Assembly (NCBI GenBank): GCA_013375375.1
Contig: JABXJX010000002.1
Location: forward strand, 1,584-65,583
Length of the DNA stretch: 64,000 bases
Reading direction: 5' to 3'
Origin: Desulfobacterales bacterium
GTDB taxonomy: Bacteria; Desulfobacterota; Desulfobacteria; Desulfobacterales; C00003060
Part shown: positions 43,044 to 63,708 of the stretch, piece by piece
Layout of the letters: each line of letters begins with the position of its first letter
Position numbering within the stretch: position 1 is the first letter of the stretch
The notes under the pieces: generated by a model
Told to the model about the DNA's origin: nothing
Databases searched by the model: none
Seen by the model: the letters and a program-made list of their open reading frames with translations, nothing else
Translations under genes and position numbers: made by a program

Positions 43044-43370
43044 ATGCAAGACCAGCTCTTAACCATTCAAGAAGTCAGTGACCGGCTCAAGGTCCCAAAA
43101 CACACCTTGCGGTTCTGGGAAAAGGAACTGGACGGCATTATAGTTCCTCACAGAACCAACGGCGGACAGAGGCGGTACGGCCTTAAGGCCATCGCCATAA
43201 TCGAAGAGATAAAAAGACTAAGAAAAAGAGGGATGAGTCTGGCCGAGATCAAGAGGAAACTCGGTGATAGCAATAATTCAAATTCAGACCGAATTGATCT
43301 TTTGGCAGACAAAATTACAGAGGTCGTCAAGGCAGAGGTTTATAGGTTTCTTGAAGGGGAAGCGGAATGA
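43044..43370 (+). CDS. small MerR-family HTH protein
   Basis: LLTIQEVSDRLKVPKHTLRFWEKEL...GGQRRY is the MerR N-terminal HTH signature; 108 aa. Confidence 0.75.
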   Translation: MQDQLLTIQEVSDRLKVPKHTLRFWEKELDGIIVPHRTNGGQRRYGLKAIAIIEEIKRLRKRGMSLAEIKRKLGDSNNSNSDRIDLLADKITEVVKAEVYRFLEGEAE

Positions 43371-43615
43371 ATCCCGGCTTCTATGCTTGCCTAAAATGAA
43401 ACAAAACTTAGCACAATTCAGCACCTGCTGCCCAAGCCGGTCGACTAAAGCAACTCAGGGCTTTTCCGCCGCAAGGCGGATTGTATTTCATCACTTTCAT
43501 CAGGAAAGTGATGAGAAAAAAATCCATCAAATCCTGTAAATCCTGTCTAACTTAGGAAAGAAAAAGATCAACTATTGAACTGTTATGGAATAACAAGTTG
43601 CGGGGTGTATGTGCT

Positions 43616-45214
43616 ATGAATAATATTGCAGTGATTGGATCGGGGTACTGGGGGAAAAATCTTGTGCGCAATTTTGACGAATTAGGCGCGCTTCATACGA
43701 TCTGTGATAAGAACATCGCAACCCTTCGATCCTTTCAGGAAAAATATCCTGAGAAAAAATTTCAAACGTCCTATGAATTAGTGTTGAAAAACCCCGCAAT
43801 TGACGCCGTGGTGATCGCCACGCCGGCAGAGACCCACTTTGAGCTGGCTAAAAAGGGATTATTGGCGGGCAAGCATGTGTTTGTGGAAAAGCCGCTGGCC
43901 TTGGTAGTCAGTGAAGCAGAGACCCTTTGCGAAATTGCGTTCCGCAGAAATCTCAAACTGATGGTCGGGCATATCCTGCTTTATCATCCGGCCATTGTAA
44001 AGCTCAAAGAGATCATAAGCTCCGGTGAATTAGGAAAGATCAACTACATCTATTCAAACCGCCTGAATCTTGGCAAGTTCCGTACTGAAGAGAATATCCT
44101 GTGGAGTTTTGCCCCGCATGATATCTCCGCCATCCTTTATCTATTGGAAGAGATGCCCACGCAGGTCGTGGCCCAGGGGGGCAATTATTTAAACAATGAC
44201 ATTGCCGACGTAACCATGAGCGTGCTTTCCTTTAAGAGTGGCGTCAAGGGGCATATCTTTGTCAGTTGGCTGCATCCTAACAAAGAACAAAAACTTGTGG
44301 TCGTTGGCGACAAAAAAATGGTGGTCTTTGACGACACATTGGCCGAAGGAAAATTGCAGATCCATGATAAGGGGGTTGAATGGGTGAACCGCCAGCCGGT
44401 GCCGCGAAAAAACGACGCGAAAATCGTCCCCATAGAATCCAATGAACCACTTAAGGCGGAATGCGCCCACTTCTTAGAGTGCATTGAATCCGACAGGGCA
44501 CCGAAAACAGACGGAAACAATGGAATACAGGTTCTAAAGATTTTGAACGCTTGCCAGGATTCTCTGGAGCACCACGGCACTGTTATTGACATGAATGGCG
44601 CTTGCCGTTCGGAATCGTTCTTTGCACATGAAACAGCAGTAATTGACACAGCCTGCAAGATAGGAAAAGGGAGCAAGGTCTGGCATTTCAGCCACATCAT
44701 GTCGGGCGCTGAAATAGGGGAGCGGTGCAACATCGGGCAAAACGTGGTCATCTCTCATGGTGTCAAGATCGGCAGCAACGTCAAGATCCAGAATAATGTA
44801 TCAATCTATGAAGGCGTAGTCCTTGAAGATGATGTTTTCTGCGGTCCCTCAATGGTCTTCACCAATGTCATCAATCCACGCAGTCATATCTCCAGAAAAC
44901 ATAAATTCAAACAAACCCTGGTCAAAAAGGGCGCAACCATCGGTGCCAATGCCACGATTGTATGCGGGCATACCATCGGCAGATACGCCTTTGTCGGCGC
45001 AGGTGCCGTGGTAACCAAAGATGTGCCGGATCACGCCCTTGTGCTGGGCAACCCGGCGACGATTGAGGGCTGGATGTGCGAGTGCGGGCACCAGCTTAAT
45101 TTCCAAGGCGATATGACTGCTTGTTCAGAATGCGGGAAAGAATACATAAAGACAGAAGAGGGTGTAAGGCTTTTTGAAGATCAAGGGACGTTGCATGCAG
45201 AAACTAGTGCATAA
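43616..45214 (+). CDS. Gfo/Idh/MocA-type sugar-nucleotide oxidoreductase fused to left-handed-beta-helix N-acetyltransferase and a terminal Zn ribbon (WbpB-like + WbpD-like)
   Basis: The N-terminus has [12 protein letters not shown] (Rossmann fold) plus a Gfo/Idh/MocA body. Residues ~340-480 show hexapeptide repeats ([35 protein letters not shown]...). The C-terminus has CECG...CSECG. Start at ATG 43616. Confidence 0.75.
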
Positions 45215-45287
45215 TCCAGACGTTCATTGTCTCTCTGTAATGCTTTCCAAACATGGATAAACTAAAAAGACTAAAGAGGATTTTTTG

Positions 45288-46946
45288 ATGGAAGACAAGT
45301 TAAAACAAGGCGAAACTCTTTTTGCTGAAGGTAAAGTTGAAGAGGCTGAGAAGTGCTTTTTGGGTCTTTTGGAAGAGAACCCTGAAAATGAGGAGGCATA
45401 TAACAATCTTGGCGTCATTGCCCTTCAACGGCAGAATATTGAACAAGCTTTTGCATATTTTACAAAGGCATTGGAAATAGCTCCTTTTTACAAATACGCA
45501 GTTTTAAACTATTCCGAGGTGCTTAGGGCGTTAGGCCGACTTCATGCAGCTATTCCCATTTTAGAAAAAGGCATTGAGAAATATTCTGACGATAAAGAGG
45601 TTAATCAGCTTTTACAGGATGCTTATGAAGCTCAGTATAATTCTACACCTTTAACTGATAGCCTAAACCACAAAACACATCTTAAATCAAAGGAATTAAT
45701 TAACTCCTCTCCCGAAAAGAAATTCAGCGGAACGAACGAAGATCCACTGTCAGGCAAGAAAATACTACATGCCCCGTTTGAAATTGCAGGCAATATGGCT
45801 AGAATCAGTCGATTTCTAAGAGCCCAAAACGTGGATGCGATTAGTGCGAATTATTATGATTCATGGCTGAAATACAAATGTGATATTAATCTAAATATCA
45901 ACAACCTTCCTGAAAGCGAGCGTCATAAAACGATTGACGATTTTGCCAAAGAGGCCATAGACAAATACGATATTTTTCATTTTCACTTCACCCATTCACT
46001 ATATCCAGACTTCAGGGATTTGGAAGAACTAAAACAAAAAGGCAAGAAAATTCTCTTTTCATTTTGGGGCAGTGATCAGAGAAGCCCGGAGTGGATACTT
46101 TATCACCAAGCTAAATTTCTCGGTTACAATCCTCCAAAGCCGTTCTTCAATACGTTACAGCAATATCATACCCATAAGTTAATTAACCGCTATGCAGATG
46201 TGATGTTTGGAACAACATGTATCCCGAGAGGAATATTTATTCCAGGTTATGCAGACACTTCTGAATGGAATCTTGTGGAAAAAGAGAGAATGCTCAGAAG
46301 GAGAATAATCGAAAAGGATTCTGGAAAGACTTATTTTGTTCATGCACCAACATCACATTGGAAGAAAGGGTCTCAAATTATTCTTAAGTTACTTGAGGAA
46401 TGTAAAAAAGATGGAATGCCAATTGAAATCTTGTTTGTCAGCCAGGTTCCACCAGAAAGGGCGAAGCAGATATATGCTTATGCAGATTATGGTATTGACC
46501 ATGTTGGGGTTGGCACATTCGGATTATTTGGAGTTGAAATGCTATGCTGGCAAACTCCTGTACTCGTTTATCATATAGATCTATTTGACAGAATCCGAAA
46601 CTCCCCTCCTATCATAAGAATAACAAAAGACAATTTTAAAAGCCAAATTGCCAAGTGTATTGAGATGAAAGAAAGTGGTGAGATAGTTGAGTTGGGAAAA
46701 AAGGGACAGAAATGGGCAATTGAGAATGTAGATATATCCCTTGGTTTACCGGAATATTTGAGAATATATAGAAACTTGGTTGAAGGAAAGCAGATCAAGC
46801 AATACGTGAACAGGTCTTGGTACGAACAGGAATACCGACTTCAGAGTGGGGTAAAGTCAAAGTTTTATAGATATATGATTGAAGAGAATGTGTTTGATGA
46901 GTTGCAGATGCAAGCACCAGACTACGATAGAAGGTTGTACACTTGA
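45288..46946 (+). CDS. TPR-repeat protein with C-terminal GT-B-like (glycosyltransferase-like) domain
   Basis: N-terminal TPR repeats (AEKCFLGLLEENPENEEAYNNLG, AFAYFTKALEIAP). The C-terminal ~400 aa have a GT-B-like layout (YFVHAPTSHWKKGSQ..., GTFGLFGVEMLCWQTPVLV). The second call is weak. Confidence 0.45.
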   Translation: MEDKLKQGETLFAEGKVEEAEKCFLGLLEENPENEEAYNNLGVIALQRQNIEQAFAYFTKALEIAPFYKYAVLNYSEVLRALGRLHAAIPILEKGIEKYSDDKEVNQLLQDAYEAQYNSTPLTDSLNHKTHLKSKELINSSPEKKFSGTNEDPLSGKKILHAPFEIAGNMARISRFLRAQNVDAISANYYDSWLKYKCDINLNINNLPESERHKTIDDFAKEAIDKYDIFHFHFTHSLYPDFRDLEELKQKGKKILFSFWGSDQRSPEWILYHQAKFLGYNPPKPFFNTLQQYHTHKLINRYADVMFGTTCIPRGIFIPGYADTSEWNLVEKERMLRRRIIEKDSGKTYFVHAPTSHWKKGSQIILKLLEECKKDGMPIEILFVSQVPPERAKQIYAYADYGIDHVGVGTFGLFGVEMLCWQTPVLVYHIDLFDRIRNSPPIIRITKDNFKSQIAKCIEMKESGEIVELGKKGQKWAIENVDISLGLPEYLRIYRNLVEGKQIKQYVNRSWYEQEYRLQSGVKSKFYRYMIEENVFDELQMQAPDYDRRLYT

Positions 46947-47013
46947 TTGGGTACTGGTTTGACTGAACGAGGGTTAGTTCGCAGTAATCATCACACTTTT
47001 TGGGCAAAGATTC

Positions 47014-48207
47014 ATGCGACTTAATCAGAAATTACAAGCGGTTTGGGAGTCTGCTACAGTCGCTCTGGCGGACCGTGTTCGCGAACTAAAGGCAGAGGGT
47101 AAGCATGTCATTGCGTTGCAGACAGGAGACCCTGACTTTCCAACACCAGAGCCAATTGTTGAAGCTGCCTATCAGGCTTTAAAGGATGGGCTGACGCATT
47201 ATTCGAACAGCCGTGGTTTGCCGGAATTGAGAGAGGCTATTTCACAGAAGCTTTTTCAGGAGCATGGCGTGCATTACGACCCAGGTGCCGAAATCCTGGT
47301 CACCAGCGGTGGTGTACACGCTTACTTCTGCGCGTTGAATGCCATTCTTAGCTTGGGTGAAGAGGTGCTTGTTCCAGACCCCGCCTGGATGACACACTCC
47401 AACGTTATTACTCTTCTAGGAGGAAAAGCGAAACATGTTCCTTCGGAACCGGAGAACGATTTTTGGCCAAAAGTGGACGCCTGGGAGGAGTCAGTTTCCC
47501 CCAAGACCGTGGCTCTGGTGATCAACTCTCCCAATAATCCGACTGGGTCGGTTGCTACTGAGGATTACCTGCGCAAAGTTGTGGACTTTGCCAATCGCCA
47601 CGATCTGCACATCATCTCTGATGAGGTTTACAACGCCATCCTTTTTGATAGCCAGCGGCATGTGTGTATGGCATCTTTTCCTGAAGCTCGTGATCGTATT
47701 TTATTGGTCAACAGCTTTTCCAAAACTTACGCTATGACAGGGTGGCGCATTGGGTACTTGGCGGCTCCGGCCGCGATCGTTTCACAGGCACTCAAAGCCA
47801 GTCAACACACCATCACAAACGTTTCGCCTTTCGTGCAGAAGGCGGCTTTGTGTGCTTTAAACGATGCCGACGTTGCTGCTGCAGTGAGCAAAATGGTTGC
47901 CCGTTATCAGCAACGGCGTGACATGGCACTGAAAATCCTTAAAGAACGTTCCCGTGTGGGGATTGATGTTGTGAAATCAAAAGGAGCCTTCTATCTTTTT
48001 CTCGATATCCGCAAACTGGGAATGCCGTCCAATACCTTTGCGAAGCGACTGCTTGACGAAGCACTGATCTCTACCGTGCCTGGCTCAGTATACGGTGTGT
48101 GTGGAGAGGGATTCCTGAGAGTGACGACTGCGACATCTGAAGAAGTTATAGAAGCTGGAATTCAGGGACTATTAGATTGGGCAGATTCTCAGGAATGGGG
48201 CAATTGA
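47014..48207 (+). CDS. PLP-dependent aminotransferase, class I/II (aspartate-aminotransferase fold)
   Basis: GDPDFPTP, INSPNNPTG, and SFSKTYAMTGWRIGY (PLP-Lys motif). Confidence 0.85.
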   Translation: MRLNQKLQAVWESATVALADRVRELKAEGKHVIALQTGDPDFPTPEPIVEAAYQALKDGLTHYSNSRGLPELREAISQKLFQEHGVHYDPGAEILVTSGGVHAYFCALNAILSLGEEVLVPDPAWMTHSNVITLLGGKAKHVPSEPENDFWPKVDAWEESVSPKTVALVINSPNNPTGSVATEDYLRKVVDFANRHDLHIISDEVYNAILFDSQRHVCMASFPEARDRILLVNSFSKTYAMTGWRIGYLAAPAAIVSQALKASQHTITNVSPFVQKAALCALNDADVAAAVSKMVARYQQRRDMALKILKERSRVGIDVVKSKGAFYLFLDIRKLGMPSNTFAKRLLDEALISTVPGSVYGVCGEGFLRVTTATSEEVIEAGIQGLLDWADSQEWGN

Positions 48208-48208
48208 C

Positions 48209-49003
48209 ATGATAGTGGATGCCCACACTCACGTTACTACTGACGGACAGTGGTTTTCAACCAGCTTTGACGCCAGCGAAACATGCTTACTGCGCCAGAT
48301 GGATGAAGAGGGTGTAGAAAAAGCTGTTGTGATCGGCTTACCGGGCTATATTTCCAACGAATCCATAAATGACCTGTGCGAACGTCATAGTGGCCGATTG
48401 CTACCTGTTGCATCTTTTAACCCGGCAGATTATGCAAATTCACAAGAAGTTTCCAGGGAAATTAGAAAACAGCTCAAAGATGAGGGGTTTATTGGAGTAA
48501 AACTACATCCGCGGTTAAACCATTATGATCCATTGGATGCTCGCGTGTTTGCCTTGCTGGATGAAATAGCAAGTTGGCCCAAACCCTTACCCGTCTGGAT
48601 AGACACCCTTTTTTATTATCCAGGCGGGGTTCTCAAAAAACCACCGGTTGAAACGATCCACGAAATGGTCGGCTCTTATCCAGGGATCACATTCTTTCTG
48701 TCGCACGCCGGGGGGCCGGACATACTGAGACTCTCCCAAGCTGTTCGTAGTTGCCCAAACACTTATTTGGAGCTTTCTCTTACTTTGACGCGGTATTTGG
48801 GCAGTTCTGTTGAGATGGATATTCGCTATCTACTGAGAACGTTCGAACAACGTTTGGTCTTTGGTTCCGATTTCCCGGAGGTCAGCCTCTCTCAAGCAAG
48901 GAATGCTTTCGACATACTTGTCAAAGATGCCAAACCCGAAGCAAGACAATCAGTTTTGGGGAATAATTTCTGCAAGATAGTCTTGCAGGAGCCCAATCAA
49001 TGA
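48209..49003 (+). CDS. amidohydrolase-2 family TIM-barrel metal-dependent hydrolase/decarboxylase-like protein
   Basis: MIVDAHTHV N-terminal metal motif, ...KLHP..., SHAGGP and FGSDFP. 1-nt gap from the aminotransferase gene. Confidence 0.7.
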   Translation: MIVDAHTHVTTDGQWFSTSFDASETCLLRQMDEEGVEKAVVIGLPGYISNESINDLCERHSGRLLPVASFNPADYANSQEVSREIRKQLKDEGFIGVKLHPRLNHYDPLDARVFALLDEIASWPKPLPVWIDTLFYYPGGVLKKPPVETIHEMVGSYPGITFFLSHAGGPDILRLSQAVRSCPNTYLELSLTLTRYLGSSVEMDIRYLLRTFEQRLVFGSDFPEVSLSQARNAFDILVKDAKPEARQSVLGNNFCKIVLQEPNQ

Positions 49004-51111
49004 ATCGTCATAACCTTGAAATCCTTGAATGCACCTTACGCGACGGCAGCTATACTATTGACTTCCAATTTACCCCTCGCGACACATACGTCATCGCCGC
49101 CGCCCTTGAGAATGCCGGCTTTAATCTTATCGAAGTGGGACATGGATTAGGCTTAAACGCATCAAGTTCAGGCAAAGGACAGGCAGCAGCAACGGACGAA
49201 GAATACATGAAGGCCGCTGCAAGCACACTCAAACGGGCTCAGTGGGGAATGTTCTTCATCCCAGGCATAGGTCAACATGAAGATCTGAAATTAGCCGCTG
49301 ATTACGGGATGGATTTCGTCCGAATTGGCACTAATGTTACAGAGGTCGAACAATCCAAAGAATATATTGAGCATGCCAAGAAGTTGGGCATGTTCGTTTC
49401 GGCCAACTTAATGAAATCTTACGCCTTGCCGCCCAAAGAACTCTCTATACGGGCAAAGCTTTCGGAAAGGTTCGGTGTTGATCTGGTGTGTCTGGTAGAT
49501 TCTGCGGGGACTATGTTGCCCGAGGATATTCAAAACTATGTGCGAACGATGCAAGATGTTCTTAATATACCAATAGGACTTCATTGCCATGACAATCTTG
49601 CACTGGGTATAGCAAATGTCTTGGCAGCGATCGATTGTGGAGTTCAGCGAATTGATAGCACTCTACAGGGAATGGGACGAGGGGGTGGCAATCCAGCCAC
49701 TGAAGTCTTAGTCAGTGTTTTGAAGAAACAAGGAATTGACCTAAACATTGATCTCAACCGTTTAATGGACGTCAGCGAGCGACTCATAAAACCAATGTTA
49801 CAGGAAAAAGGTTTTGATTCAATCAACATCACTTCGGGCTATGCCGGATTCCATTCCGGTTATCTCAAGACGATTCTCAAATATGCCGACCGCTATAAAG
49901 TTGATCCACGTGACCTGATTGTTGAGGTATGCCGGGCAGATCAAGTTTATGCTCATGAGGAACTTGTCGAAGACATCGCTTCACGGCTGCAACAGCAAGA
50001 AGCTGGTAGAGCGGGTCTGCATATCATTTCATTACCGCATTTTGCTTTTGCTGACGGGAAAGAGATGGAGGCATCGGATGATTCTCTTGCCGGAGCGGTT
50101 GAAAGGGTTGTGACAAAGGCCAGGACTACAGCCAAGAGACGAGGCAAACAGAGCGTTCTTAATATTGTTGCAGCTCCGCAGGCCGCAGAACAAACTATCG
50201 TTTCACGATTCGTGCAGGAAGAGTTTGACTATGTCATTGGCAGTGTAGAGGTTGGCAGCCCCTTGCCACTGGAAGAAATCATCGCAGTTGCTGATGGCGT
50301 GGTGGACATCTTGCTTGTGGATGCCGAACTTAAACCGTACCTCAATGAGCCTTTGTTTACAAAGGGACGTTCTCTTGCAAAGCAAAGCCGGGTGGTGGGC
50401 TACAAAGACTACGATGTCTGGGTACGTAGCGTTGACCAAGATATCCGCATGATGTTGAAGGATATTCGAGGTCGGCAGATCACGGTATGCGGTACGGACA
50501 ATCTGTCATTGAAACTTGTCTTATCCATGCTCGAACAGGGAGCAAGGGTCACACTTACAGGAGCCACCTCCGATAAGCTTGAAGTCTTCGGTGACTCCCT
50601 GAAACGAATGGCTCTCTGTACAGGGTTTCTGGGGATTGAAGCGGATCCTGTTGAGGCGGCCCGGGCGGCCGAGGTGATGGTGTCTTTTTCACGGAGGGAA
50701 CTTCTGGTCAGCCGAGCGATGGTAGAAGTGATGGCTGCCCACGGCATTATATTTGACGGGGGAATCGGTTCTGTGCCGCCTGAGGTAATCGCATACTGCA
50801 ACGAATGCGGTATGCGGATTATCCGACCGGATATGCGTGCTGTATTGGCATGTGAGCTGGCATCATTACTTGGGACAGATCGTACGGTTAATGAATTGAT
50901 GGGGCGAGGAGAAATAGCGGGCGTCCAGGTGGTAGCAGGCGGTTTGGTGGGCAAGTACGGAGATATTGTTGTAGATTCCGTATCGAATCCCTCCCGAGTA
51001 GTAGGTGTAGCTGATGGATGTGGACGGGTTCTATACGTTCCTACAGAATTCACCGATCAGATAGAGGCGGTTGAGCGAGAGATTGTACGGCGGCAAGCTC
51101 TGATCATTTAG
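49000..51111 (+). CDS. HMGL-like (DmpG/pyruvate-carboxyltransferase type) aldolase domain fused to a ~350-aa uncharacterised C-terminal domain
   Basis: ILECTLRDGSYTIDFQF, VRIGT and GLHCHDNLALGIAN..D.TL.GMGRGGGN are HMGL-like TIM-barrel motifs. No family was recognised for the C-terminal half. Confidence 0.7.
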   Translation: MNRHNLEILECTLRDGSYTIDFQFTPRDTYVIAAALENAGFNLIEVGHGLGLNASSSGKGQAAATDEEYMKAAASTLKRAQWGMFFIPGIGQHEDLKLAADYGMDFVRIGTNVTEVEQSKEYIEHAKKLGMFVSANLMKSYALPPKELSIRAKLSERFGVDLVCLVDSAGTMLPEDIQNYVRTMQDVLNIPIGLHCHDNLALGIANVLAAIDCGVQRIDSTLQGMGRGGGNPATEVLVSVLKKQGIDLNIDLNRLMDVSERLIKPMLQEKGFDSINITSGYAGFHSGYLKTILKYADRYKVDPRDLIVEVCRADQVYAHEELVEDIASRLQQQEAGRAGLHIISLPHFAFADGKEMEASDDSLAGAVERVVTKARTTAKRRGKQSVLNIVAAPQAAEQTIVSRFVQEEFDYVIGSVEVGSPLPLEEIIAVADGVVDILLVDAELKPYLNEPLFTKGRSLAKQSRVVGYKDYDVWVRSVDQDIRMMLKDIRGRQITVCGTDNLSLKLVLSMLEQGARVTLTGATSDKLEVFGDSLKRMALCTGFLGIEADPVEAARAAEVMVSFSRRELLVSRAMVEVMAAHGIIFDGGIGSVPPEVIAYCNECGMRIIRPDMRAVLACELASLLGTDRTVNELMGRGEIAGVQVVAGGLVGKYGDIVVDSVSNPSRVVGVADGCGRVLYVPTEFTDQIEAVEREIVRRQALII

Positions 51112-51138
51112 CGGTCCGAACACAGACGGAGGTTTGAG

Positions 51139-56133: not shown

Positions 56134-57018
56134 ATGAAAGATCGCAAGTTTCCCGTCAGCGATTACAAAAGTAAGGATTCCCGTTGGAATGCCTATTACA
56201 GCAGCTTTGACATTGAGTCGTATCTGCGGATATTGGAGTATGATGAAGCCACCCTCTTCATCGACGAACACCTTGGCCCATTACCCAAAGAAAGCTTCAT
56301 CTTGGATATCGGCTGTGGTTCTGGTCGCCATCTGGTTCACCTCAGCAATATGGGCTTTACCAATCTTTTTGGTGTGGATCTAAGTCCTCATGGCATCAGG
56401 AATTTGACTATCCGCCGCCCTGAGATCAAAGCTCAGGTTGCCGATGCCACCAAATTGCCGTTTGATGACAATACATTTGAAGCAATCCTTATGGTAGGGG
56501 TCGTGTATGAGATTGCGAATGTTTCCTTACATGATCAGGTCATAACCGAGATTCGGAGAGTATTGCGTCCTGGTGGACGAGTTGTTTTCATTAATAATTC
56601 ACCATACAACTTTGGTGAGCGGATATTTACCATTACTCAGACAATTTCTGCCTTTGTCAAGAGCTCTCAACTAAAGTTCTTTGTTTGGCGTTATGAGCGC
56701 AAAGATGTTCACACATTGTTTTTGCGTCACGGGCTACGCTTAGTTGAAGAATGGCCTTGCAGTATACGACGTGGGGTGTTTCGATTTTTCTATGGGATCT
56801 TTGTGCCAAAAAACGTGAAAGAAAACCGCAAAAGACGGATAAACAACACCAATGGCCAACCGTATTCCTTGCATGAATACTACCTGGTCAACAAGGATCG
56901 AAGCCTACTTACTCCTTTGGGTAACTATGTGGCCCGGATTTCGGCGCGGGTCGACCCTTTCCTCTTCGCCAATACAATTTGCTACCTATTCAAAAAGAAA
57001 GCCCCTACGTTCAAATAA
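56134..57018 (+). CDS. class I SAM-dependent methyltransferase
   Basis: ILDIGCGSGRH (motif I), DATKLPFDDNTFEAI, and LRPGGRVVF. Confidence 0.8.
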   Translation: MKDRKFPVSDYKSKDSRWNAYYSSFDIESYLRILEYDEATLFIDEHLGPLPKESFILDIGCGSGRHLVHLSNMGFTNLFGVDLSPHGIRNLTIRRPEIKAQVADATKLPFDDNTFEAILMVGVVYEIANVSLHDQVITEIRRVLRPGGRVVFINNSPYNFGERIFTITQTISAFVKSSQLKFFVWRYERKDVHTLFLRHGLRLVEEWPCSIRRGVFRFFYGIFVPKNVKENRKRRINNTNGQPYSLHEYYLVNKDRSLLTPLGNYVARISARVDPFLFANTICYLFKKKAPTFK

Positions 57019-57058: not shown

Positions 57059-58009
57059 ATGGATATAATTAAGGATATAGTTTTTGAGTTGACTCTTAGA
57101 TGTAACCTCAGTTGTGCCATGTGTTCGCGACAGTTCCTGAAAAACAAGCCTTCAGACCTAGATTTCGCCTCACTGGAGCGTGTGCTGAGCGATTTGAAGA
57201 CTTTTTACAGCTCGAACCAGATCAATTTTAGTTTCGGGGGCTATGGGGAGCCACTTTTGTACCCGCACTTGTTTGAGGCAATTGAGACAGTTAAAACCAC
57301 ATTCCCACATAGTAATCTAACTATAACGACTAATGGTCATCTGCTGACAAGTTCTTTGATCGATAAATTGATGGTTTCACCGCTGGATTACGTACGCGTG
57401 AGCCTTAACGCTACGTGTGCTGAAGAATACCTGAGACTTATGAATAGCGACAGGTTCGACATGGTTGTATCAAATATCGAGCGTTTTCTTCGCAAGAAGC
57501 AGTCAATAAGGAGCCGGATTAAGGTAGGCATCCAGATCCTGGATACAACGATAAATAGGCAAAAATACCCTGAATACAAAAAGAGGTGGGAAGACCTTCT
57601 TACTGGCGATGATTTTATAACCTATCGCCTGATGGAAAATCGAGGCGGGACTATTGACTCCGTACGTCTTTCAAAGGGTAGCTCTCCAGGCCGCATAAAG
57701 ATGCGGTGGCCCTGCTATGCCCTTTGGTGCCACATTGCAATTGATACCCTGGGCCGCGTTTTTTCTTGCTGCGAAGCCTACACATTCAGGGATGACAGCA
57801 GTCTTTTACAGCTTGGCTTGCTTGAAGAATCGTCCATTGTTGATTTGATCAACTCGGAAAACTTAAAAAGGATGCAGGAGATGCACTTAAGAAATGATTA
57901 TTCTCTCCTGCCGGAGTGCCTAAAATGCACCAAGCCGATCAATTATCCGAACTATTGGGTTCTAAACAACGGTGTTTGGGTCGAAAAAGATGAGAATATT
58001 GCTAATTGA
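57059..58009 (+). CDS. radical SAM enzyme with SPASM-like domain
   Basis: LTLRCNLSCAMCSR; C-terminal WPCYALWCHIAIDTLGRVFSCC...ECLKC. Confidence 0.8.
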   Translation: MDIIKDIVFELTLRCNLSCAMCSRQFLKNKPSDLDFASLERVLSDLKTFYSSNQINFSFGGYGEPLLYPHLFEAIETVKTTFPHSNLTITTNGHLLTSSLIDKLMVSPLDYVRVSLNATCAEEYLRLMNSDRFDMVVSNIERFLRKKQSIRSRIKVGIQILDTTINRQKYPEYKKRWEDLLTGDDFITYRLMENRGGTIDSVRLSKGSSPGRIKMRWPCYALWCHIAIDTLGRVFSCCEAYTFRDDSSLLQLGLLEESSIVDLINSENLKRMQEMHLRNDYSLLPECLKCTKPINYPNYWVLNNGVWVEKDENIAN

Positions 58010-59456
58010 ACCTGAATCGAACTACAAGGCCCCCAATTTGGGGCTTTTGTTCCTCAGTAACGCTATTTCACAGAGTCGTCATGAGGCTTTGTTGCTGGAT
58101 TTTAATGGCAAGCCCATCGATGATCCGGCGACGAGGGTCATGCAACTCATCGATTCCCATGAAATAGCCATTATTGGGATATCGGTTTGTGATGTCAATT
58201 ACCAATGGTCCGTAGATCTTATAAGGCAATTGAAAAAGAAAAGAGCAATCACTGTCGTTGTCGGTGGACCGCAAGTCAACAGTCTAAAAGAATCTGTTCT
58301 AACGGACAACGCGGAAATTGACTACGCATTTGCTGGCGAATGTGAGGAGTCCATTGTCAACTTCCTTGACTTCATTGAGGCTGGCGGTGACGGAAGCGGG
58401 GTCCCCGGTTTACTTTACCGGAACGGAAAAACAATCAAACAGGTTAATCAAAACTTCATTTCATCGCTTGATGAACTGCCTTTCCCAGATTACAGCCATT
58501 TGGGTATTGAACATGTTTCTGGCTACATGCTGCTGACCTCACGGGGGTGTCCGTACCGCTGTACGTTTTGCTGTCGCAATACGGGGAACGTTTGGCGACC
58601 TCGATCGTTGGCCGAGTGTATAGAAGAAATACGCATAGCCAAAGAAAAGCTTGCCATCAAAAGTTTTAGAATTATCGACGCGTCTTTTAATATAAACGAA
58701 CATCGTGTTATCCAGTTTTGTCAACAGGCAAAAGAGTCAAAAAACGAACTGCCGTGGATGGTAAGCGGAATAAGGGCTGATCGTCTCACGGAGAAGTCTG
58801 TTGCTGCGCTTAAAGATGCTGGTTGTGAAATGTTGGCCGTGGGTGTGGAGAGTCTCGACCCCGTGGTATTTCGTCGGATTAACAAAGGAGAAACCATTGC
58901 TGACATTATGCGTGCAATAAACCTGGGTCACAAATATGACATTGAAGTGGCATGTTATATGATTCACGGCTTACCCGGGGATAGCTACGAAAGATCGATA
59001 AGCTACGCCCGCAAATTACAGGCATTGAGACCATCTTACGTCATGTACAATCATGCGATACCTTTTCCCGGCACCGAACTGCATAACTGGGTAACCCGGC
59101 ACGGTCATTTCAACGCTGATTTTTCATGGCTTCAGACTCGTGACGTAGAAAAAGTTGCATTCTGGACAGATGATTTTACGGAAGAAGAGCGGTTGAAATC
59201 CTTCCGCATCATCCAAACCATCACCCACGTAATAAATTTTTCTAGCGAGGACCCTAACGAGCTATCTGCTCTCGAAGCGGAGATTAAAGAGCATGACCCC
59301 GAATATCTTGTTTATCACCTTGATTTTGTCAAAGAGAACTTGAATCGAAAAGGTAATGAGAAAAACTACATTAAACGGTTTCACCAGGAAACCGATATCG
59401 GACGTCGGTCTGATTATACGGGCTGTGTTAATGTAAAGACTCACGAAATGGTCTGA
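57990..59456 (+). CDS. B12-binding-domain radical SAM enzyme
   Basis: The N-terminus (MRILLIEP...PNLGLLFLSNAI...IIGISV...VVVGGP) is a cobalamin-binding Rossmann-like domain. It is followed by SRGCPYRCTFCC. 20-nt overlap with the previous gene. Confidence 0.8.
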   Translation: MRILLIEPESNYKAPNLGLLFLSNAISQSRHEALLLDFNGKPIDDPATRVMQLIDSHEIAIIGISVCDVNYQWSVDLIRQLKKKRAITVVVGGPQVNSLKESVLTDNAEIDYAFAGECEESIVNFLDFIEAGGDGSGVPGLLYRNGKTIKQVNQNFISSLDELPFPDYSHLGIEHVSGYMLLTSRGCPYRCTFCCRNTGNVWRPRSLAECIEEIRIAKEKLAIKSFRIIDASFNINEHRVIQFCQQAKESKNELPWMVSGIRADRLTEKSVAALKDAGCEMLAVGVESLDPVVFRRINKGETIADIMRAINLGHKYDIEVACYMIHGLPGDSYERSISYARKLQALRPSYVMYNHAIPFPGTELHNWVTRHGHFNADFSWLQTRDVEKVAFWTDDFTEEERLKSFRIIQTITHVINFSSEDPNELSALEAEIKEHDPEYLVYHLDFVKENLNRKGNEKNYIKRFHQETDIGRRSDYTGCVNVKTHEMV

Positions 59457-59547: not shown

Positions 59548-61494
59548 ATGTGTGGGATTGCCGGCATATATCATCTTGAACGAAAGCCTATTCCGGCACA
59601 CTGCCTGCAGGGTATGTGTGACGTGATGAAACACCGCGGTCCCGACGATGAGGGCTATGTGTTTTTTCATGTCAGAAACGAGCCGTTTAGGGATGAGGGA
59701 TATTGGGTCGAAAAAGGCGCTGATATGCCAGCAGTCCAAGGAGTTGAGGAATGGAGAAATCTATTTGGTGGGAATGACGACTTCAACCTGGCGTTGGGGC
59801 ACAGGCGCTTAGCTGTTATTGATCTGACTTCTGCCGCACATCAACCCATGTCGAATCGGGCCAATGGTATCTGGATAAGCTACAACGGCGAGATATATAA
59901 TTTTAGAGAGCTGCGGCGTGAGCTTGAAAGCAAGGGTCACCACTTCTTTTCTCGCTCGGATACTGAGGTGATAATACACCTGTACGAAGAGTATGGTGAC
60001 GATGGCATAACCAGGTTAAACGGGATATTCGCATTTGCCCTTTGGGATGGGAGGAAGAATCGTTTACTACTGGCTCGTGATCGATATGGGGCCAAACCTT
60101 TATACTATACTATTCAAAATAATATATTGAGCTTTGCTTCAGAAGTAAAAGCCCTCCTCCAGGTAGATGGCATAAATGCCAAACTTAACTACCAGGCATT
60201 GTCAGAATATTTTACCTTTCAAAATACCTTTGGCGACGCCACCCTGTTTGACGGAATAAAACTGCTGGAACCCGGCCATCTTCTGGTGATAGAGGGGAAA
60301 AATATAACTAAGAAGAAATACTGGGATTTTGACTTTGATGATGGTGATGATCAAGGGGAAGCATTCTACATCAAACGGCTTAGAGAGATTTTTGAGCAGG
60401 TGATCGAACGTCAATTGATTTCGGATGTTCCTGTGGGAAGTTACCTGAGCGGGGGGCTTGATTCCGGTAGTATTACTGCATTTGCCTCGAAGTTTATTCC
60501 TCGGTTGATGACTTTTACCGGCGGTTTTGATGTTGCCACTGCTGTGAGTATCGAAAACTTCTTTGATGAGCGTGATAAGGCTGAATTGATATCGCGCGAA
60601 TTCGGCACAGAACATTACCAAATGGTCATTCATGCGGGTGATCTGGAATGGGCCCTGCCAAGAGTAATCCGGCATAGCGAGGATCTGCGTGTAGGCATGT
60701 CTTATCCCCATTATTATCTGTCGCAATTAGCGAGTAAGTTCGTCAAGGTCGTACTTGCCGGACCAGGTGGTGATGAAACCTTGGCCGGTTATCCCTGGAG
60801 ATACGATTTGGTAAAAAATTGTAAATCCTGTCGGGAATTCGAAGAGGTTACCTACCAATACTGGTCGAGGCTTGTTAAAGATCAGGACAAGAAAGAATTC
60901 TTCAGCCCAAATACATTGGAAAGAATAGGAAATCACTTGCCATTTGAATCTTTACAAGGCGTTCTAAGCAACGATTCGAACAGTAACTTTGCCAAAAAAG
61001 CGCTATATTTCGATGCCAAAACGTTCTTGCATGGGATTCTGCTTGTCGAGGATAAATTAAGTATGGCTCATTCTTTAGAGTCAAGAGTACCTTTTTTAGA
61101 TAATGAACTTGTGGACTTTACAACTAAAATGCCATGTAAATATCTCCTCAACGATTCATGGATCCCGACGGCCAAGACCGATATTAATCTCTCTGGAAAG
61201 TACGTTTTACGACGTGCAATGGAAGGTATGTTGCCGAAAGATATTATCGAAAATCGTAAACAGGGTTTTAGTCCGCCGGAGCAATCATGGTATATGCAGC
61301 AGCTTGTCCAGTATATTAAGAGCATCATTCTCTCAGAGCGTAGCCTGGAACGAGGTTTTTTTCAAAAGGTATATCTGGAGAGAATCCTTAATGAACATGT
61401 AAAGGGTAAGGCTAATCATCGTCTTCTGATCTGGTCGCTTCTTAGTTTTGAGTGGTGGAACAGAATTTTTATTGATGGAGAGGGAGTTGAATAG
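59548..61494 (+). CDS. asparagine synthase (glutamine-hydrolysing)-family amidotransferase
   Basis: N-terminal MCGIAG (Cys2 nucleophile), HRRLAVIDL, and the SGGLDS PP-loop; 648 aa. Confidence 0.9.
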   Translation: MCGIAGIYHLERKPIPAHCLQGMCDVMKHRGPDDEGYVFFHVRNEPFRDEGYWVEKGADMPAVQGVEEWRNLFGGNDDFNLALGHRRLAVIDLTSAAHQPMSNRANGIWISYNGEIYNFRELRRELESKGHHFFSRSDTEVIIHLYEEYGDDGITRLNGIFAFALWDGRKNRLLLARDRYGAKPLYYTIQNNILSFASEVKALLQVDGINAKLNYQALSEYFTFQNTFGDATLFDGIKLLEPGHLLVIEGKNITKKKYWDFDFDDGDDQGEAFYIKRLREIFEQVIERQLISDVPVGSYLSGGLDSGSITAFASKFIPRLMTFTGGFDVATAVSIENFFDERDKAELISREFGTEHYQMVIHAGDLEWALPRVIRHSEDLRVGMSYPHYYLSQLASKFVKVVLAGPGGDETLAGYPWRYDLVKNCKSCREFEEVTYQYWSRLVKDQDKKEFFSPNTLERIGNHLPFESLQGVLSNDSNSNFAKKALYFDAKTFLHGILLVEDKLSMAHSLESRVPFLDNELVDFTTKMPCKYLLNDSWIPTAKTDINLSGKYVLRRAMEGMLPKDIIENRKQGFSPPEQSWYMQQLVQYIKSIILSERSLERGFFQKVYLERILNEHVKGKANHRLLIWSLLSFEWWNRIFIDGEGVE

Positions 61495-61532
61495 TGTGAG
61501 GTAAGCGCCTAAAGTGATCTAAGGTGACTAAA

Positions 61533-62489
61533 ATGCCTAAAGTTAATCAAAATAGCTTCAATAACCCCAAACTCCTCGAATTTCCGGGTCGTGTCACCTT
61601 AGAATTAACAAATTACTGCAATTTGAATTGTGTAATGTGTCCGAGGAAGTACATGACAGGCCCCAAGGGGTATTTATCATTTTCTCTTTTTACTGAAATA
61701 ATAGACGAAATCGCAGAACGCGAAAACATCGCTCTTGTTCCTTTCTTCAGAGGGGAATCGTTACTTCATCCCAGATGTATCGACATGCTGGCATATGCTA
61801 AAGAGAATGGAGTTGGCCCTATTCAGTTCGCTACGAACGGCACTCTTATGACTGAAAATATTGCTCGGGATTTAATTGATATAGAGGTGGACTTTGTTTC
61901 TTTTAGTGTTGATTCCATTGATCCAAAGGATTATCGACAAATCAGAAAAGGGGCTGACCTTAAAACCGTACTAAAAAACATCGAATTCTTATGTAATCTA
62001 AAGAAGACAAGAGGAATATCAAAACCTGACATCCAGGTTTCCGTTGTGAAAACAAAAAATACCTACAATGGGATAGAAGATTTTGTTAACTTTTGGCAAC
62101 AAAGGGTTGATCGAGTTCGAGTATATGAAGAGCATTCTAAGGATGGTAATTTTGGCTCTTTGGACAAAGCCGGAGATGATGATGCGGTTTGTGAAAAACG
62201 GCGGCCTTGTTTGAAGCCTTTTACTGACATGGTTATTTATTGGAATGGCTGTGTTGTTCTGTGTAACCATGATTGGGATAAAAAATATGTCATAGGCGAC
62301 GTTAACCAAAGTGCCATTTCAGAAATTTGGCATAATGAGACTTATCGCAAAATCAGAGAAGCGCACCTGGGTAACGGCGAACTCGATGAGGTTTGCAAGG
62401 AATGCGACCACTGGAGGACTTATTATCGTAAAGAAAGTCTTATAGGGGAGGTATATGTCGGTAATTCAGAGGTGTATACAAATGCCTGA
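61533..62489 (+). CDS. radical SAM enzyme with SPASM-like domain
   Basis: LTNYCNLNCVMCPR; C-terminal CLKPFTDMVIYWNGCVVLC, GDVNQSAISEIWHN and CKECDHW. ATG 61533 follows AAGGTGA; GTG 61524 is an alternative start. Confidence 0.8.
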   Translation: MPKVNQNSFNNPKLLEFPGRVTLELTNYCNLNCVMCPRKYMTGPKGYLSFSLFTEIIDEIAERENIALVPFFRGESLLHPRCIDMLAYAKENGVGPIQFATNGTLMTENIARDLIDIEVDFVSFSVDSIDPKDYRQIRKGADLKTVLKNIEFLCNLKKTRGISKPDIQVSVVKTKNTYNGIEDFVNFWQQRVDRVRVYEEHSKDGNFGSLDKAGDDDAVCEKRRPCLKPFTDMVIYWNGCVVLCNHDWDKKYVIGDVNQSAISEIWHNETYRKIREAHLGNGELDEVCKECDHWRTYYRKESLIGEVYVGNSEVYTNA

Positions 62490-63708
62490 TGAGATAATTC
62501 CCATAACACGACCTGTTTTTGATGAGGAGGAAGAACGTGCTATCCCGGAAGTGATAAGATCCGGATGGTTGGTTCAGGGCCCCCGGGTTGCGGATTTTGA
62601 AGATAAGTTTAAGACATTTCTCGGTGTCAAGCATGCCATTGCAACAACCTCTTGTACCACAGCGCTTCATCTTGCTCTACTGGCTGCAGGGATCGGCCCG
62701 AGCGATGAGGTGTTACTGCCTTCCTTTACTTTCATTGCGACCGCCAATGCTGTTGAGTACACAGGGGCCAAGCCTGTATTTATAGATATTGATCTTGCCA
62801 CCTACAACATTGATTCTGAAAAGATATTGGAGTACCTGGACAATCAAAAAGCGATTTACAAACGCCATGCTAAGTGCATCCTCCCTGTCTCTCTTTTTGG
62901 CCTTTGCGCGAATATGGAATCAATTAACAGGATTGCATCTGAAAACGGACTCATAGTGATTGAAGACGCGGCCTGCGGGTTTGGCGCCAAACGAAATGGG
63001 CGCTTCGCTGGAACAGAGGCTTTGGCAGGATGTTTCAGTCTTCATCCCCGCAAGGCGATTACTACTGGGGAAGGGGGAATGGTCGTGACTAACGATGACC
63101 ATTTGGCTGACAAAGTCCGAAAGATGAGGGATCATGGCGGGTCAAAGACAGACCTGGAAAGACATTTACAGAATGGCGGTTCTATGCTTCCCGAATATAA
63201 TATGCTGGGTTTTAACTACCGGATGACGGACTTACAAGGGGCATTGGGCGTAGCCCAAATGGACAAGGCTGACATGATAATAGAGGGGCGACGGAAGGCC
63301 GCTGCAAGATACGATGAGCTTTTGCAAGGGGTAGCTGAGATAACAACACCGTTTGTACCGGAAAGCTATACACATGCTTACCAGTCTTATGTTTGTTTGT
63401 ATAAGGCGGATAGTTCCAAGCTGAAAGATAAAGCGGATATTCACTGGTCCGATGTTGATGTCTGGAACCGTGAGCGCAACCGCCTCATGGCCCGCCTGGA
63501 AAAGAAGGGCATCTCTGTGAGGCAGGGAACACACGCTGTCCATACTTTGGGCTATTACAAGAAAAAATACGGACTTAATGACTATGATTACCCCATGTCC
63601 TATATTGCAGACCGACTATCCATAACCCTTCCACTATATTATGGGATAACCAAAGAAGAACAACTGAGAGTTGTGAATAGTTTGCAGGAGCTTATTAAGA
63701 CTCGGTAA
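62482..63708 (+). CDS. DegT/DnrJ/EryC1/StrS-family sugar aminotransferase (WbpE-like)
   Basis: IPITRPVFDEEE, GPRVADFE, ATTSCTTALHLAL, and SLHPRKAITTGEGGMV (PLP-Lys motif). ATG 62482 overlaps the previous gene by 8 nt. Confidence 0.85.
   Translation: MPDEIIPITRPVFDEEEERAIPEVIRSGWLVQGPRVADFEDKFKTFLGVKHAIATTSCTTALHLALLAAGIGPSDEVLLPSFTFIATANAVEYTGAKPVFIDIDLATYNIDSEKILEYLDNQKAIYKRHAKCILPVSLFGLCANMESINRIASENGLIVIEDAACGFGAKRNGRFAGTEALAGCFSLHPRKAITTGEGGMVVTNDDHLADKVRKMRDHGGSKTDLERHLQNGGSMLPEYNMLGFNYRMTDLQGALGVAQMDKADMIIEGRRKAAARYDELLQGVAEITTPFVPESYTHAYQSYVCLYKADSSKLKDKADIHWSDVDVWNRERNRLMARLEKKGISVRQGTHAVHTLGYYKKKYGLNDYDYPMSYIADRLSITLPLYYGITKEEQLRVVNSLQELIKTR

Follow-up and report, generated by a model that had tools for sequence, protein, structure and literature searches.

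Very few radical S-adenosylmethionine (SAM) enzymes are known to act on carbohydrates. BtrN, a radical SAM enzyme of the twitch type, oxidises an aminocyclitol alcohol ahead of a DegT-family transaminase, and GnnA/GnnB and the archaeal UDP-GlcNAc 3-dehydrogenase use UDP-GlcNAc without prior oxidation at C6. The flagellin pseudaminyl-transferase FlmG of Caulobacter has a two-domain layout, a tetratricopeptide repeat (TPR) domain that binds flagellin and a catalytic domain (PMC7591256). Here we describe a run of 16 genes in a Desulfobacterales metagenome-assembled genome, from an uncultured relative of sulfate reducers, found within 64,000 nucleotides of contig JABXJX010000002.1 (positions 1,584 to 65,583 of the forward strand; hereafter the window), that brings together amino-sugar enzymes, pyruvate aldolases, five radical SAM (rSAM) enzymes and a putative glycosyltransferase with TPRs (TPR-GT). 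The region is very probably a sugar- or glycan-tailoring island. Our best reading is that of a flagellin-type cytoplasmic protein O-glycosylation island making an acylated, methylated diamino sugar; with modest confidence, we regard the island as self-contained, making one heavily tailored nucleotide-activated diamino sugar that would be transferred directly to protein in the cytoplasm, with flagellin as the best candidate acceptor.

The predicted sugar core and its putative transferase

The ORF listing gives an unbroken run of 16 open reading frames (ORFs) on the forward strand, at 43044-63708 of the window. An earlier reading of these letters, made without database searches (the sequence-only reading), had placed 16 genes on one strand, and every one of the ORFs is present there; its list of genes and domains is matched nearly exactly by Pfam and NCBIfam profile scans, and all five rSAM enzymes that it named bear CX3CX2C. 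In order, the genes are:

43044-43370, forward strand: MerR-family regulator, 108 amino acids (aa) (MerR_1, 2.3e-19)
43598-45214, forward strand: predicted GFO/IDH/MocA sugar 3-dehydrogenase (residues ~1-330) fused to a WlbB/WbpD-type left-handed beta-helix N-acetyltransferase (~340-525) (Pfam, NCBIfam, PDB)
45285-46946, forward strand: TPR-GT, putative protein glycosyltransferase, with TPR part (~1-120), disordered linker (121-150) and GT-B part (~155-553) (Pfam TPR, structural model, homologues)
47014-48207, forward strand: class I (aspartate-aminotransferase-like) pyridoxal phosphate aminotransferase (Aminotran_1_2, 8.8e-75)
48209-49003, forward strand: amidohydrolase-2 family metal hydrolase, hydratase or decarboxylase, its 3′ end overlapping the next gene by 4 nt (PF04909, 6.5e-22)
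49000-51111, forward strand: HMGLf, the aldolase fusion, a DmpG-like class II pyruvate aldolase (1-335) fused to a two-lobed Rossmann domain (~340-703) (HMGL-like and DmpG_comm)
51139-51816, forward strand: RraA-like (HMG/CHA-aldolase family) class II pyruvate aldolase/oxaloacetate decarboxylase (PF03737, 5.9e-43)
51813-53036, forward strand: ATP-grasp ligase of the L-amino-acid-ligase type, proposed amide-bond former (ATP-grasp families and LAL_C2)
53231-54535, forward strand: rSAM1, with SPASM/twitch C-terminal domain, 434 aa (Pfam; CX3CX2C at residue 40)
54540-55817, forward strand: rSAM2, with SPASM/twitch C-terminal domain, 425 aa as called, the ORF opening at 54522 (Pfam; CX3CX2C at residue 85 of the long ORF)
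56134-57018, forward strand: class I SAM-dependent methyltransferase (Methyltransf_11/25)
57059-58009, forward strand: rSAM3, small, with twitch-like domain, 316 aa (Pfam; CX3CX2C at residue 15; five C-terminal Cys)
57990-59456, forward strand: B12-binding radical SAM enzyme (B12-rSAM), putative C-methyltransferase (B12-binding and Radical_SAM)
59548-61494, forward strand: AsnB-type glutamine-dependent amidotransferase (Asn_synthase and GATase_7; TIGR01536, 444 bits, above cut-off)
61533-62489, forward strand: rSAM4, small BtrN-like twitch radical SAM enzyme, the long ORF opening at 61524 and the 3′ end overlapping DegT (Pfam; BtrN match)
62482-63708, forward strand: DegT/DnrJ/EryC1-family sugar aminotransferase, 408 aa as called, the ORF opening at 62455 (PF01041, 2.2e-103)

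The predicted sugar core consists of the fused dehydrogenase-acetyltransferase and the terminal DegT, which is the sole sugar aminotransferase of the island. The acetyltransferase domain (residues 343-524) matches WlbB in the PDB (3mqg/3mqh; E 3.1e-68, 234 bits), and the dehydrogenase domain carries both the N- and C-terminal GFO_IDH_MocA Pfam domains, with the archaeal UDP-GlcNAc 3-dehydrogenase as its top NCBIfam model (180 bits against a cut-off of 450). The best PDB matches of the dehydrogenase domain are other GFO/IDH/MocA oxidoreductases, 3c1a and 7bvj (the latter, named only “oxidoreductase” in the PDB, we take to be GnnA), and its PDB matches at E <= 1e-10 include no chain named WbpB or WlbA. 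A full-length homologue of the fused protein, sharing 53% identity, is found beside DegT, TPR-GT and flagellin genes in one related locus (L119; loci from our neighbourhood sets are numbered in this way). DegT matches WbpE in the PDB at 176 bits, with higher scores for 9bgp, perosamine synthases and ArnB, and reaches 310 bits with the PseC model of NCBIfam, below cut-off; its regiospecificity cannot be read from the sequence. The DegT homologues in TPR-GT loci share 59-68% identity with it.

The oxidase, transaminase and acetyltransferase logic that the sequence-only reading had proposed is thus borne out by the WlbB/WbpD match of the acetyltransferase and the top NCBIfam model of the dehydrogenase. 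That reading had further taken a diamino sugar acid as its working hypothesis for the product; the Wbp-like order of oxidation, amination and acetylation stands, whereas the uronic acid is unsupported because there is no 6-dehydrogenase in the cluster or the window. Neither UDP-sugar dehydrogenase (WbpA) nor Epimerase_2 (WbpI) domains were found in the 16 genes or the rest of the window, though they could be elsewhere in the genome, and the substrate is therefore probably UDP-GlcNAc, not a uronic acid. The simplest reading is a conversion of UDP-GlcNAc to UDP-GlcNAc3NAc, in which the dehydrogenase domain would oxidise C3 of UDP-GlcNAc, DegT would aminate the ketone, and the fused WlbB-type domain would N-acetylate the new amine. 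The enzyme families of this step are established; its substrate and product are those that the families suggest.

The putative transferase of this sugar is TPR-GT. Its Pfam TPR matches cover residues 6-116 only; a homologue search returned about 55 close relatives, some without the TPR part, and distant relatives (28-31% identity over 90% of the length) bear Glycos_transf_1 (PF00534). An AlphaFold model (18 sequences; pLDDT 89) has seven TPR-type helices, a disordered linker and two Rossmann-like lobes, as in GT-B enzymes. When the full-length model was searched with Foldseek, the top matches were SPINDLY, human and Drosophila OGT, and bacterial OGT homologues (E 3e-11 for SPINDLY/OGT), and for the catalytic domain alone MshA, a GT4 enzyme, superposes with a TM of 0.61. 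The TPR protein had been guessed to be GT-like, which agrees with PF00534 in the distant homologues and with the GT-B C-terminal domain of the model. A canonical initiating transferase had also been reported missing: a phosphoglycosyl transferase is indeed absent, but the island does have a candidate transferase in the TPR protein, a predicted GT-B enzyme with protein-glycosyltransferase architecture. Given this architecture, the acceptor is likely a protein and not a lipid-linked polymer.

Relatives of TPR-GT are found near flagellin genes. A metagenome scan added 53 loci to the TPR-GT neighbourhood set, and flagellin was counted in the 29 loci of at least 11 kb: nine of them have a flagellin ORF at most 10 kb from TPR-GT, and Flagellin_N/C was confirmed by Pfam in five of these nine. 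FliD and GT2-TPR protein genes adjoin flagellin in L104 and L119, the two loci whose neighbours were checked. As a control, 80 aldolase-fusion loci were searched, with flagellin found in none (0/80) and TPR-GT in none (0/80). The TPR-GT islands of the relatives are compact and contain no lipid-carrier machinery, which fits direct cytoplasmic protein glycosylation. TPR-GT would bind its target protein through the TPR domain and glycosylate it in the manner of OGT, SPINDLY or FlmG; here the architecture is that shown by the model, and flagellin linkage in relatives points to the acceptor.

Three of the related loci show what else accompanies TPR-GT. In L090, a 54%-identical TPR-GT is 6 kb upstream of two flagellin genes, with DegT, ATP-grasp, rSAM/SPASM, WbmS-deacetylase, formyltransferase and AsnB genes as neighbours; the two flagellins (17971-21611), which adjoin the TPR-GT island, are unusually long (~807-809 aa) and have faint hexapeptide-repeat (LbH) matches in their central parts. 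L119 combines genes for flagellin, FliD, TPR-GT, DegT, the dehydrogenase-acetyltransferase fusion, HisH/HisF-like amidotransferase proteins, a methyltransferase and an ATP-grasp enzyme. Its HisF-like and HisH-like genes are accompanied by a 383-aa gene without annotation (11899-14421, reverse strand), and the set resembles the acetamidino-forming trio of the WbuXYZ/AglXYZ type; in function it would correspond to the AsnB-type enzyme of the window. L093 combines TPR-GT with DegT, a GFO dehydrogenase and an acetyltransferase of the hexapeptide type, and its acyl module is of another kind (FkbH/ACP, B12-rSAM).

Proposed tailoring modules: amidotransferase, acid synthesis and radical SAM enzymes

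The last three genes of the island form a triad that recurs with TPR-GT. AsnB (70-75% identity), rSAM4 (54-62%) and DegT (66-68%) follow directly after TPR-GT in L101, L103, L104 and L106, in the same order as in the window, and in L092 and L098 AsnB is directly after TPR-GT, with DegT also present. Since the triad is conserved after TPR-GT, the window looks like such an island with the acid and rSAM modules inserted between transferase and AsnB. rSAM4 has the C32/C36/C39 cluster and six C-terminal Cys; among its three PDB matches the only significant one is to the auxiliary-cluster domain of BtrN (residues 163-238, about 75 residues; E 6e-11), and its gene overlaps that of DegT by 8 nt. The BtrN match and the conserved pairing with DegT suggest an O2-independent step from alcohol to ketone to amine: following BtrN/BtrS logic, rSAM4 may oxidise another sugar hydroxyl without O2 and DegT may aminate the product, with the AsnB-type enzyme perhaps adding an amide or amidine nitrogen.

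The public annotation calls rSAM4 as a protein of 278 aa starting at 61653, which loses CX3CX2C (residues 32-39 of the long ORF); therefore the longer ORF is right, with its start at 61524 or 61533.

The middle of the island holds what we call the acid module. The aldolase fusion (PF00682, 1.6e-42; PF07836, 1.6e-12) aligns over residues 1-335 with DmpG (1nvm; E 2.6e-63), and its metal ligands D15, H195 and H197, which are invariant, align with D18, H200 and H202 of DmpG. The DmpG residues His21 and Tyr291, which have catalytic roles in the DmpG/BphI enzymes, are replaced by Tyr18 and His285, both invariant in an alignment of 17 sequences. No Pfam match was found for the C-terminal ~365-370 aa; a model of this domain (pLDDT 85) is two-lobed and Rossmann-like, with dipicolinate synthase subunit A as the best, weak fold match (TM 0.35-0.43), and an exhaustive search returned 623 cluster representatives of the domain family, fused or free-standing (~340 aa). 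The aldolase fusion as a whole (703 aa) has more than 1000 homologues, mostly of ~700 aa and nearly all from uncultured organisms, in Acidobacteriota, Desulfobacterota, Planctomycetota, Nitrospirota, Chloroflexota, bacteria of the candidate phyla radiation (CPR) and several archaeal lineages.

Co-occurrence was counted in 60 full-length aldolase-fusion loci. An ATP-grasp gene is adjacent to the fusion in 43/60; DegT is present in 35, a GFO dehydrogenase in 24, amidohydrolase-2 in 21, AsnB in 17, a class I aminotransferase in nine, the RraA-like aldolase in five, and rSAM1/rSAM2 in five to six. The contexts of the module are all glycan loci, with STT3/AglB and a flippase; with Wzx/WbqC; with NeuB, CMP-transferase and DegT (L087); with a PseB-like dehydratase, DegT, AsnB and Wzm/Wzt; or, in a Desulfovibrio locus, with CMP-transferase and a PseB-like dehydratase; the common factor across them is an amino sugar. 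The closest relative, L004, contains GT2, GT4, AsnB, rSAM4-like, DegT, amidohydrolase-2, aldolase-fusion and ATP-grasp genes, and further rSAM1, rSAM2, methyltransferase, rSAM3-like and WbmS deacetylase genes.

Among these contexts, an acidobacterial cassette recurs in L015, L018, L019, L024, L027, L050, L051, L070 and L080. It consists of genes for an acetyltransferase, a GFO dehydrogenase, DegT, the aldolase fusion, ATP-grasp and (in some loci) amidohydrolase-2, together with a conserved ~315-aa protein without Pfam match, a second DegT, a membrane GT2, LPG_synthase_TM, an epimerase and GT87; in our reading, the pairing of membrane GT2 and GT87 may amount to an ArnC/ArnT-style polyprenyl-phosphate sugar relay.

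Every NCBIfam match of the class I aminotransferase is below the equivalog cut-off, and we propose, from its family, that it may convert a 2-oxo acid to an amino acid. The amidohydrolase-2 protein has no NCBIfam match and two weak PDB matches, to uncharacterised or merely predicted amidohydrolases. The RraA-like protein matches PRK06201, LigK and PcmE in NCBIfam, all below cut-off, and its gene recurs with the module in L009, L029, L043, L070, L081 and L091. The ATP-grasp protein has PF18603 (LAL_C2; 3e-15) and matches BL00235 (3vot; 1.7e-19) and RizA (4wd3; 2.9e-15) in the PDB. In L091 and L102, TPR-GT relatives are beside rSAM1, rSAM2, RraA, ATP-grasp and amidohydrolase-2 genes, without the aldolase fusion; the acid module thus accompanies TPR-GT repeatedly.

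Family chemistry and strong gene adjacency suggest that the RraA-like and DmpG-like aldolases, the amidohydrolase-2 protein and the class I aminotransferase may start from pyruvate-derived 4-hydroxy-2-oxo acids and produce a hydroxy or amino acid of non-proteinogenic type, which the L-amino-acid-ligase-type ATP-grasp enzyme would then amide-link to the sugar. One lead, prompted by O-antigen chemistry, is a methylated hydroxy-5-oxoproline-type acyl group that would derive from 4-hydroxy-4-methyl-2-oxoglutarate; an RraA-type aldolase, an amidotransferase and C-methylases would fit such a group, as a lead only. It is conceivable, and to us rather doubtful, that the aldolase-Rossmann fusion and ATP-grasp pair represents a new and widespread decoration of amino sugars by a pyruvate-aldol acid (or a carbon-chain extension), amide-linked to the nucleotide sugar, and that together with five rSAM enzymes it yields an unprecedented flagellin-linked glycan transferred by an undescribed TPR-GT4-like family. 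The possibility that the aldolase fusion is a NeuB-independent nonulosonic-acid synthase was set aside, since L087 contains both the fusion and NeuB and a CMP-transferase is missing from the island.

rSAM1-rSAM4 share 22-25% identity with one another, and their C-terminal domains, with 4-6 Cys each, are twitch-like, not full 7-Cys SPASM domains. rSAM1 follows the ATP-grasp gene in L004, L007, L013 and L035, and is beside TPR-GT in L091 and L102; rSAM2 has homologues in L004 (68% identity) and L091 (58%), and rSAM3 in L004, L129 and L140. A methyltransferase gene after rSAM1-rSAM2 is also found in L004, L013 and L035. B12-rSAM matches the HpnJ, RiPP C-methyltransferase and P-methyltransferase models of NCBIfam, all far below cut-off. 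We speculate that the methyltransferase, B12-rSAM and the other twitch/SPASM rSAM enzymes may perform O2-independent methylation, epimerisation or oxidation.

Mosaic structure, surroundings and alternative readings

The sequence-only reading had asked whether the block is conserved as a unit. It is not: the 16-gene order was found only in this contig, and only sub-blocks are conserved, making the island a mosaic of four or more modules, each co-conserved on its own. Its glycan-tailoring reading is strengthened by the same comparison, since the modules recur in O-antigen, nonulosonic-acid, archaeal N-glycan and flagellar loci, and no named pathway matches the island, just as that reading had stated. 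We found no characterised syntenic locus, and no literature on DmpG-/HMGL-like aldolases with ATP-grasp and radical SAM enzymes in glycan contexts; the single paper found with both HMGL-like and ATP-grasp proteins is on phosphonates, and the island has no phosphoenolpyruvate (PEP) mutase. The GC content of the island (43044-63708) is 44.6%, against 48.8% upstream (1-42999), and within the island it ranges from 0.38 to 0.50 per gene (TPR-GT 38%, rSAM4 40% and rSAM1 40%, compared to 47-54% for upstream genes); this lower and uneven GC suggests a mosaic, horizontally acquired island.

About half of the junctions are tight, in line with the many overlaps and gaps below 30 nt noted earlier: in gene order their lengths are 227, 70, 67, 1, -4, 27, -4, 194, 4, 316, 40, -20, 91, 38 and -8 nt. 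Three gaps are longer than 190 nt, which leaves room for more than one transcript. Promoter and terminator counts in a scan of the island were no higher than in shuffled background, so the scan is uninformative on operon structure. Homologues of the MerR protein (47-52% identity) lie upstream of TPR-GT in L096 and L112, and this protein may be the regulator of the island.

The co-directional run stops at 63708 and is followed by an ATPase gene on the reverse strand. Extension past position 64000 (2.8 kb, up to the contig end) added one glycosyltransferase-family gene, Glyco_trans_1_2; no flippase, polymerase or phosphoglycosyl transferase was found in the 64 kb or in these 2.8 kb, which fits soluble, direct glycosylation. 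The absence of Wzx/Wzy/Wzz, phosphoglycosyl transferase, nonribosomal peptide synthetase (NRPS), polyketide synthase (PKS) and any plausible precursor peptide, remarked on for the cluster, holds for the whole window. The ATPase gene (63761-64000 of the window, reverse strand; 11280-14081 of L003 for the segment) is ATPase_2/nSTAND-like, and next to it are the Glyco_trans_1_2 (CgeB-like) gene, on the forward strand, and a gene fragment.

In the remaining 42 kb of the window, the genes serve housekeeping, metal transport and regulation, and none is a glycan or flagellar gene. Glutamate synthase has a split large subunit (142-921 and 933-4511, forward strand), the 259-aa ORF covering positions 1-242 of the GATase_2 profile and the 1192-aa ORF beginning at 271-417; a frameshift, a misassembly or a truly split gene would each account for this. 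Directly after it is a gene (4601-6328, forward strand) for a YcaO-domain protein with a C-terminal TPR array, with no obvious partner or substrate gene near. Metal-homeostasis genes occupy 23058-30855 (a ZnuA/ABC/ABC-3 transporter, a Fur-family regulator, NicO and DUF1007, FeoB, and a Fur-FeoA fusion), and a UvrD-type helicase of 1139 aa is encoded at 35073-38492 (reverse strand), its first ~475 residues having no Pfam match.

A protein acceptor, reached through TPR-GT, is a somewhat favoured part of our reading; flagellin as that protein is tentative, and we would give little credence to any specific product structure. Several observations count against the reading. The closer TPR-GT relatives (at least 46% identity) are flagellin-linked in only two of ~14 long loci (L090, L104), most flagellin-linked loci belong to a TPR-GT subfamily of 26-30% identity, and no flagellar genes were found in the 64-kb window or the 2.8 kb beyond. 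The island has the three junctions above 190 nt and the background-level promoter and terminator scan. On the chemical side, the aldolase fusion lacks the His21/Tyr291 arrangement and may therefore catalyse something other than a simple 4-hydroxy-2-oxovalerate aldol reaction; and if both sugar amines are acetylated, there is no obvious free amine for the ATP-grasp enzyme, nor a carboxylate, the 6-dehydrogenase being absent.

The island could instead be a cassette that only supplies the precursor of a lipid-linked polysaccharide of the cell surface (O-antigen, capsule or S-layer glycan), with the assembly genes elsewhere and TPR-GT acting on a lipid-linked glycan. This is unlikely in our estimate, yet it deserves more weight than any other alternative, as the aldolase-fusion/ATP-grasp module is found in acidobacterial GT2/GT87-type loci as well as in loci with Wzm/Wzt, Wzx, NeuB/CMP-transferase or STT3, GT2 and GT4 genes flank L004, the closest relative, there is a Glyco_trans_1_2 gene 1 kb beyond the island, and the catalytic domain of TPR-GT is GT4-like by fold. 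The 64 kb, however, lack a phosphoglycosyl transferase, flippase, polymerase and ABC exporter, soluble protein glycosyltransferases share the TPR plus GT-B architecture, the relatives of TPR-GT are compact islands that often adjoin flagellin and FliD, and TPR-GT was absent from all 80 polysaccharide-type loci with the aldolase fusion. A diffusible small molecule seems improbable as the product, whether a conjugate of the aminoglycoside-like or amino-acid-sugar kind or a dipeptide-type antimetabolite from the L-amino-acid ligase. The parallel of rSAM4 and DegT with butirosin BtrN/BtrS speaks for it, as do the B12-rSAM methylases and GFO/IDH/MocA dehydrogenases known from aminoglycoside pathways, the dipeptide antibiotics made by ATP-grasp enzymes of the L-amino-acid-ligase type, the MerR regulator and the GC difference from the surroundings; against these stand the lack of a cyclitol/2-deoxy-scyllo-inosose synthase, exporter and self-resistance gene in the island and the 2.8 kb beyond it, the recurrence of all modules in glycan or flagellar loci and not in natural-product clusters, and an acetyltransferase close to WlbB/WbpD, which act on UDP-sugars.

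That unrelated operons on the same strand were juxtaposed by chance is very improbable. The 16-gene order is unique to this contig, the modules are separate elsewhere, and the three long gaps and the spread of gene GC could be taken in the same sense; every junction type nevertheless recurs in other genomes. TPR-GT is found with the dehydrogenase/acetyltransferase and DegT in L093 and L119, with AsnB-rSAM4-DegT in L101-L106, and with rSAM1, rSAM2, RraA, ATP-grasp and amidohydrolase-2 in L091 and L102, while the aldolase fusion is found with ATP-grasp, rSAM1, rSAM2 and methyltransferase in L004, L013 and L035, and with DegT and AsnB in L005, L006, L008, L030 and L052; and a single theme, amino-sugar tailoring, accommodates all functions. 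We give the least credit to a cluster for a ribosomally synthesised and post-translationally modified peptide (RiPP), in which four rSAM/SPASM enzymes, B12-rSAM, ATP-grasp, the AsnB-like protein and the methyltransferase would mature a ribosomal peptide, the sugar genes being a neighbouring operon. NCBIfam likenesses to WgkB, YhhB, CcpM, a RiPP C-methyltransferase and a lasso cyclase exist, all weak and far below cut-off, and the 194- and 316-nt gaps could conceal a small gene; yet the intergenic gaps hold no credible precursor ORF, and no peptidase/protease, transporter or exporter is present in the island or the 2.8 kb beyond. Moreover, the C-terminal domains are of the BtrN-like twitch kind with 4-6 Cys, not 7-Cys SPASM, and in many genomes rSAM1/rSAM2 accompany the aldolase/ATP-grasp sugar module, with rSAM4 between AsnB and DegT.

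To our knowledge, many exotic N-acyl and C-methyl decorations of bacterial and archaeal surface and flagellar glycans have no known genes. The enzyme modules of the island are widespread in microbial surface-sugar loci and, as far as we know, uncharacterised. The aldolase-fusion/ATP-grasp pair is found across many phyla in O-antigen, nonulosonic-acid, archaeal N-glycan and (here) protein-glycosylation loci, half of the fusion having no Pfam model, and a reaction assignment for the pair would annotate hundreds of loci. If the cytoplasmic protein-glycosylation reading is true, up to five radical SAM enzymes would join the list of those acting on carbohydrates, as an anaerobic counterpart to oxygen- and NAD-dependent sugar tailoring, and the TPR-GT family would be a second candidate class of flagellin glycosyltransferases, neither FlmG nor Maf, useful for glyco-engineering. 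Should the island be only a precursor cassette for a conventional polysaccharide, the enzymology would still be new and the biology ordinary.

Comparison with known systems

The sugar core resembles WbpB/WbpE/WbpD of Pseudomonas aeruginosa (WlbA/WlbC/WlbB in Bordetella) in its predicted order of 3-oxidation, transamination and N-acetylation, with an acetyltransferase related to WlbB/WbpD and a DegT related to WbpE. Unlike the Wbp/Wlb route to UDP-2,3-diacetamido-2,3-dideoxy-glucuronic acid, the island fuses the dehydrogenase to the acetyltransferase and does not lie in an O-antigen locus; the lack of WbpA and WbpI excludes it from the Wbp uronic-acid pathway. The core also resembles Acidithiobacillus GnnA/GnnB and the archaeal UDP-GlcNAc 3-dehydrogenase, whose model heads the NCBIfam matches of the dehydrogenase domain. 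The product of GnnA/GnnB goes into lipid A, however, neither of the two is fused to an acetyltransferase, and the model score is 180 bits where the cut-off is 450.

Similar to FlmG, OGT and SPINDLY, the TPR-GT of the window has an N-terminal TPR part and a predicted C-terminal GT-B part, the likeness to FlmG being one of layout. The donor of FlmG is CMP-linked pseudaminic acid, whereas no NeuB, PseB-like (Polysacc_synt_2) dehydratase or CMP-transferase (CTP_transf_3) was found in the island by Pfam and NCBIfam; without NeuB or CMP-transferase, this is not a nonulosonic-acid FlmG or Maf system, and a UDP-hexosamine derivative is more likely as the donor of TPR-GT. The TPR part is also shorter (~120 aa, compared to 313 aa in FlmG), the catalytic domain is GT4-like and not GT41, and there is no flagellin gene in the window.

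As in BtrN/BtrS of butirosin synthesis, rSAM4 combines CX3CX2C with one auxiliary-cluster (twitch) domain and is paired with a DegT; its substrate, unlike that of BtrN, would presumably be a nucleotide sugar and not an aminocyclitol. The acid module recalls DmpFG/BphIJ and the LigK/HMG-CHA aldolases, in that the DmpG communication domain and metal ligands are kept and the RraA-like protein matches the LigK/PcmE models. It differs from DmpFG/BphIJ in its anabolic, glycan-associated context and in having a fused Rossmann domain in place of a gene for the acylating aldehyde dehydrogenase DmpF/BphJ; since the catalytic dyad is swapped and DmpF absent, the aldolase fusion is not a canonical DmpFG. 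Finally, the ATP-grasp fold and LAL_C2 domain are shared with the L-amino-acid ligases (BL00235, RizA, BacD) and with glycan-tailoring ATP-grasp amidoligases. The matches to the L-amino-acid ligases are distant (E 1e-19 to 1e-15), and the tie of the ATP-grasp gene to amino-sugar pathways (43/60 loci) points to a substrate attached to a sugar, not to a pair of free amino acids.

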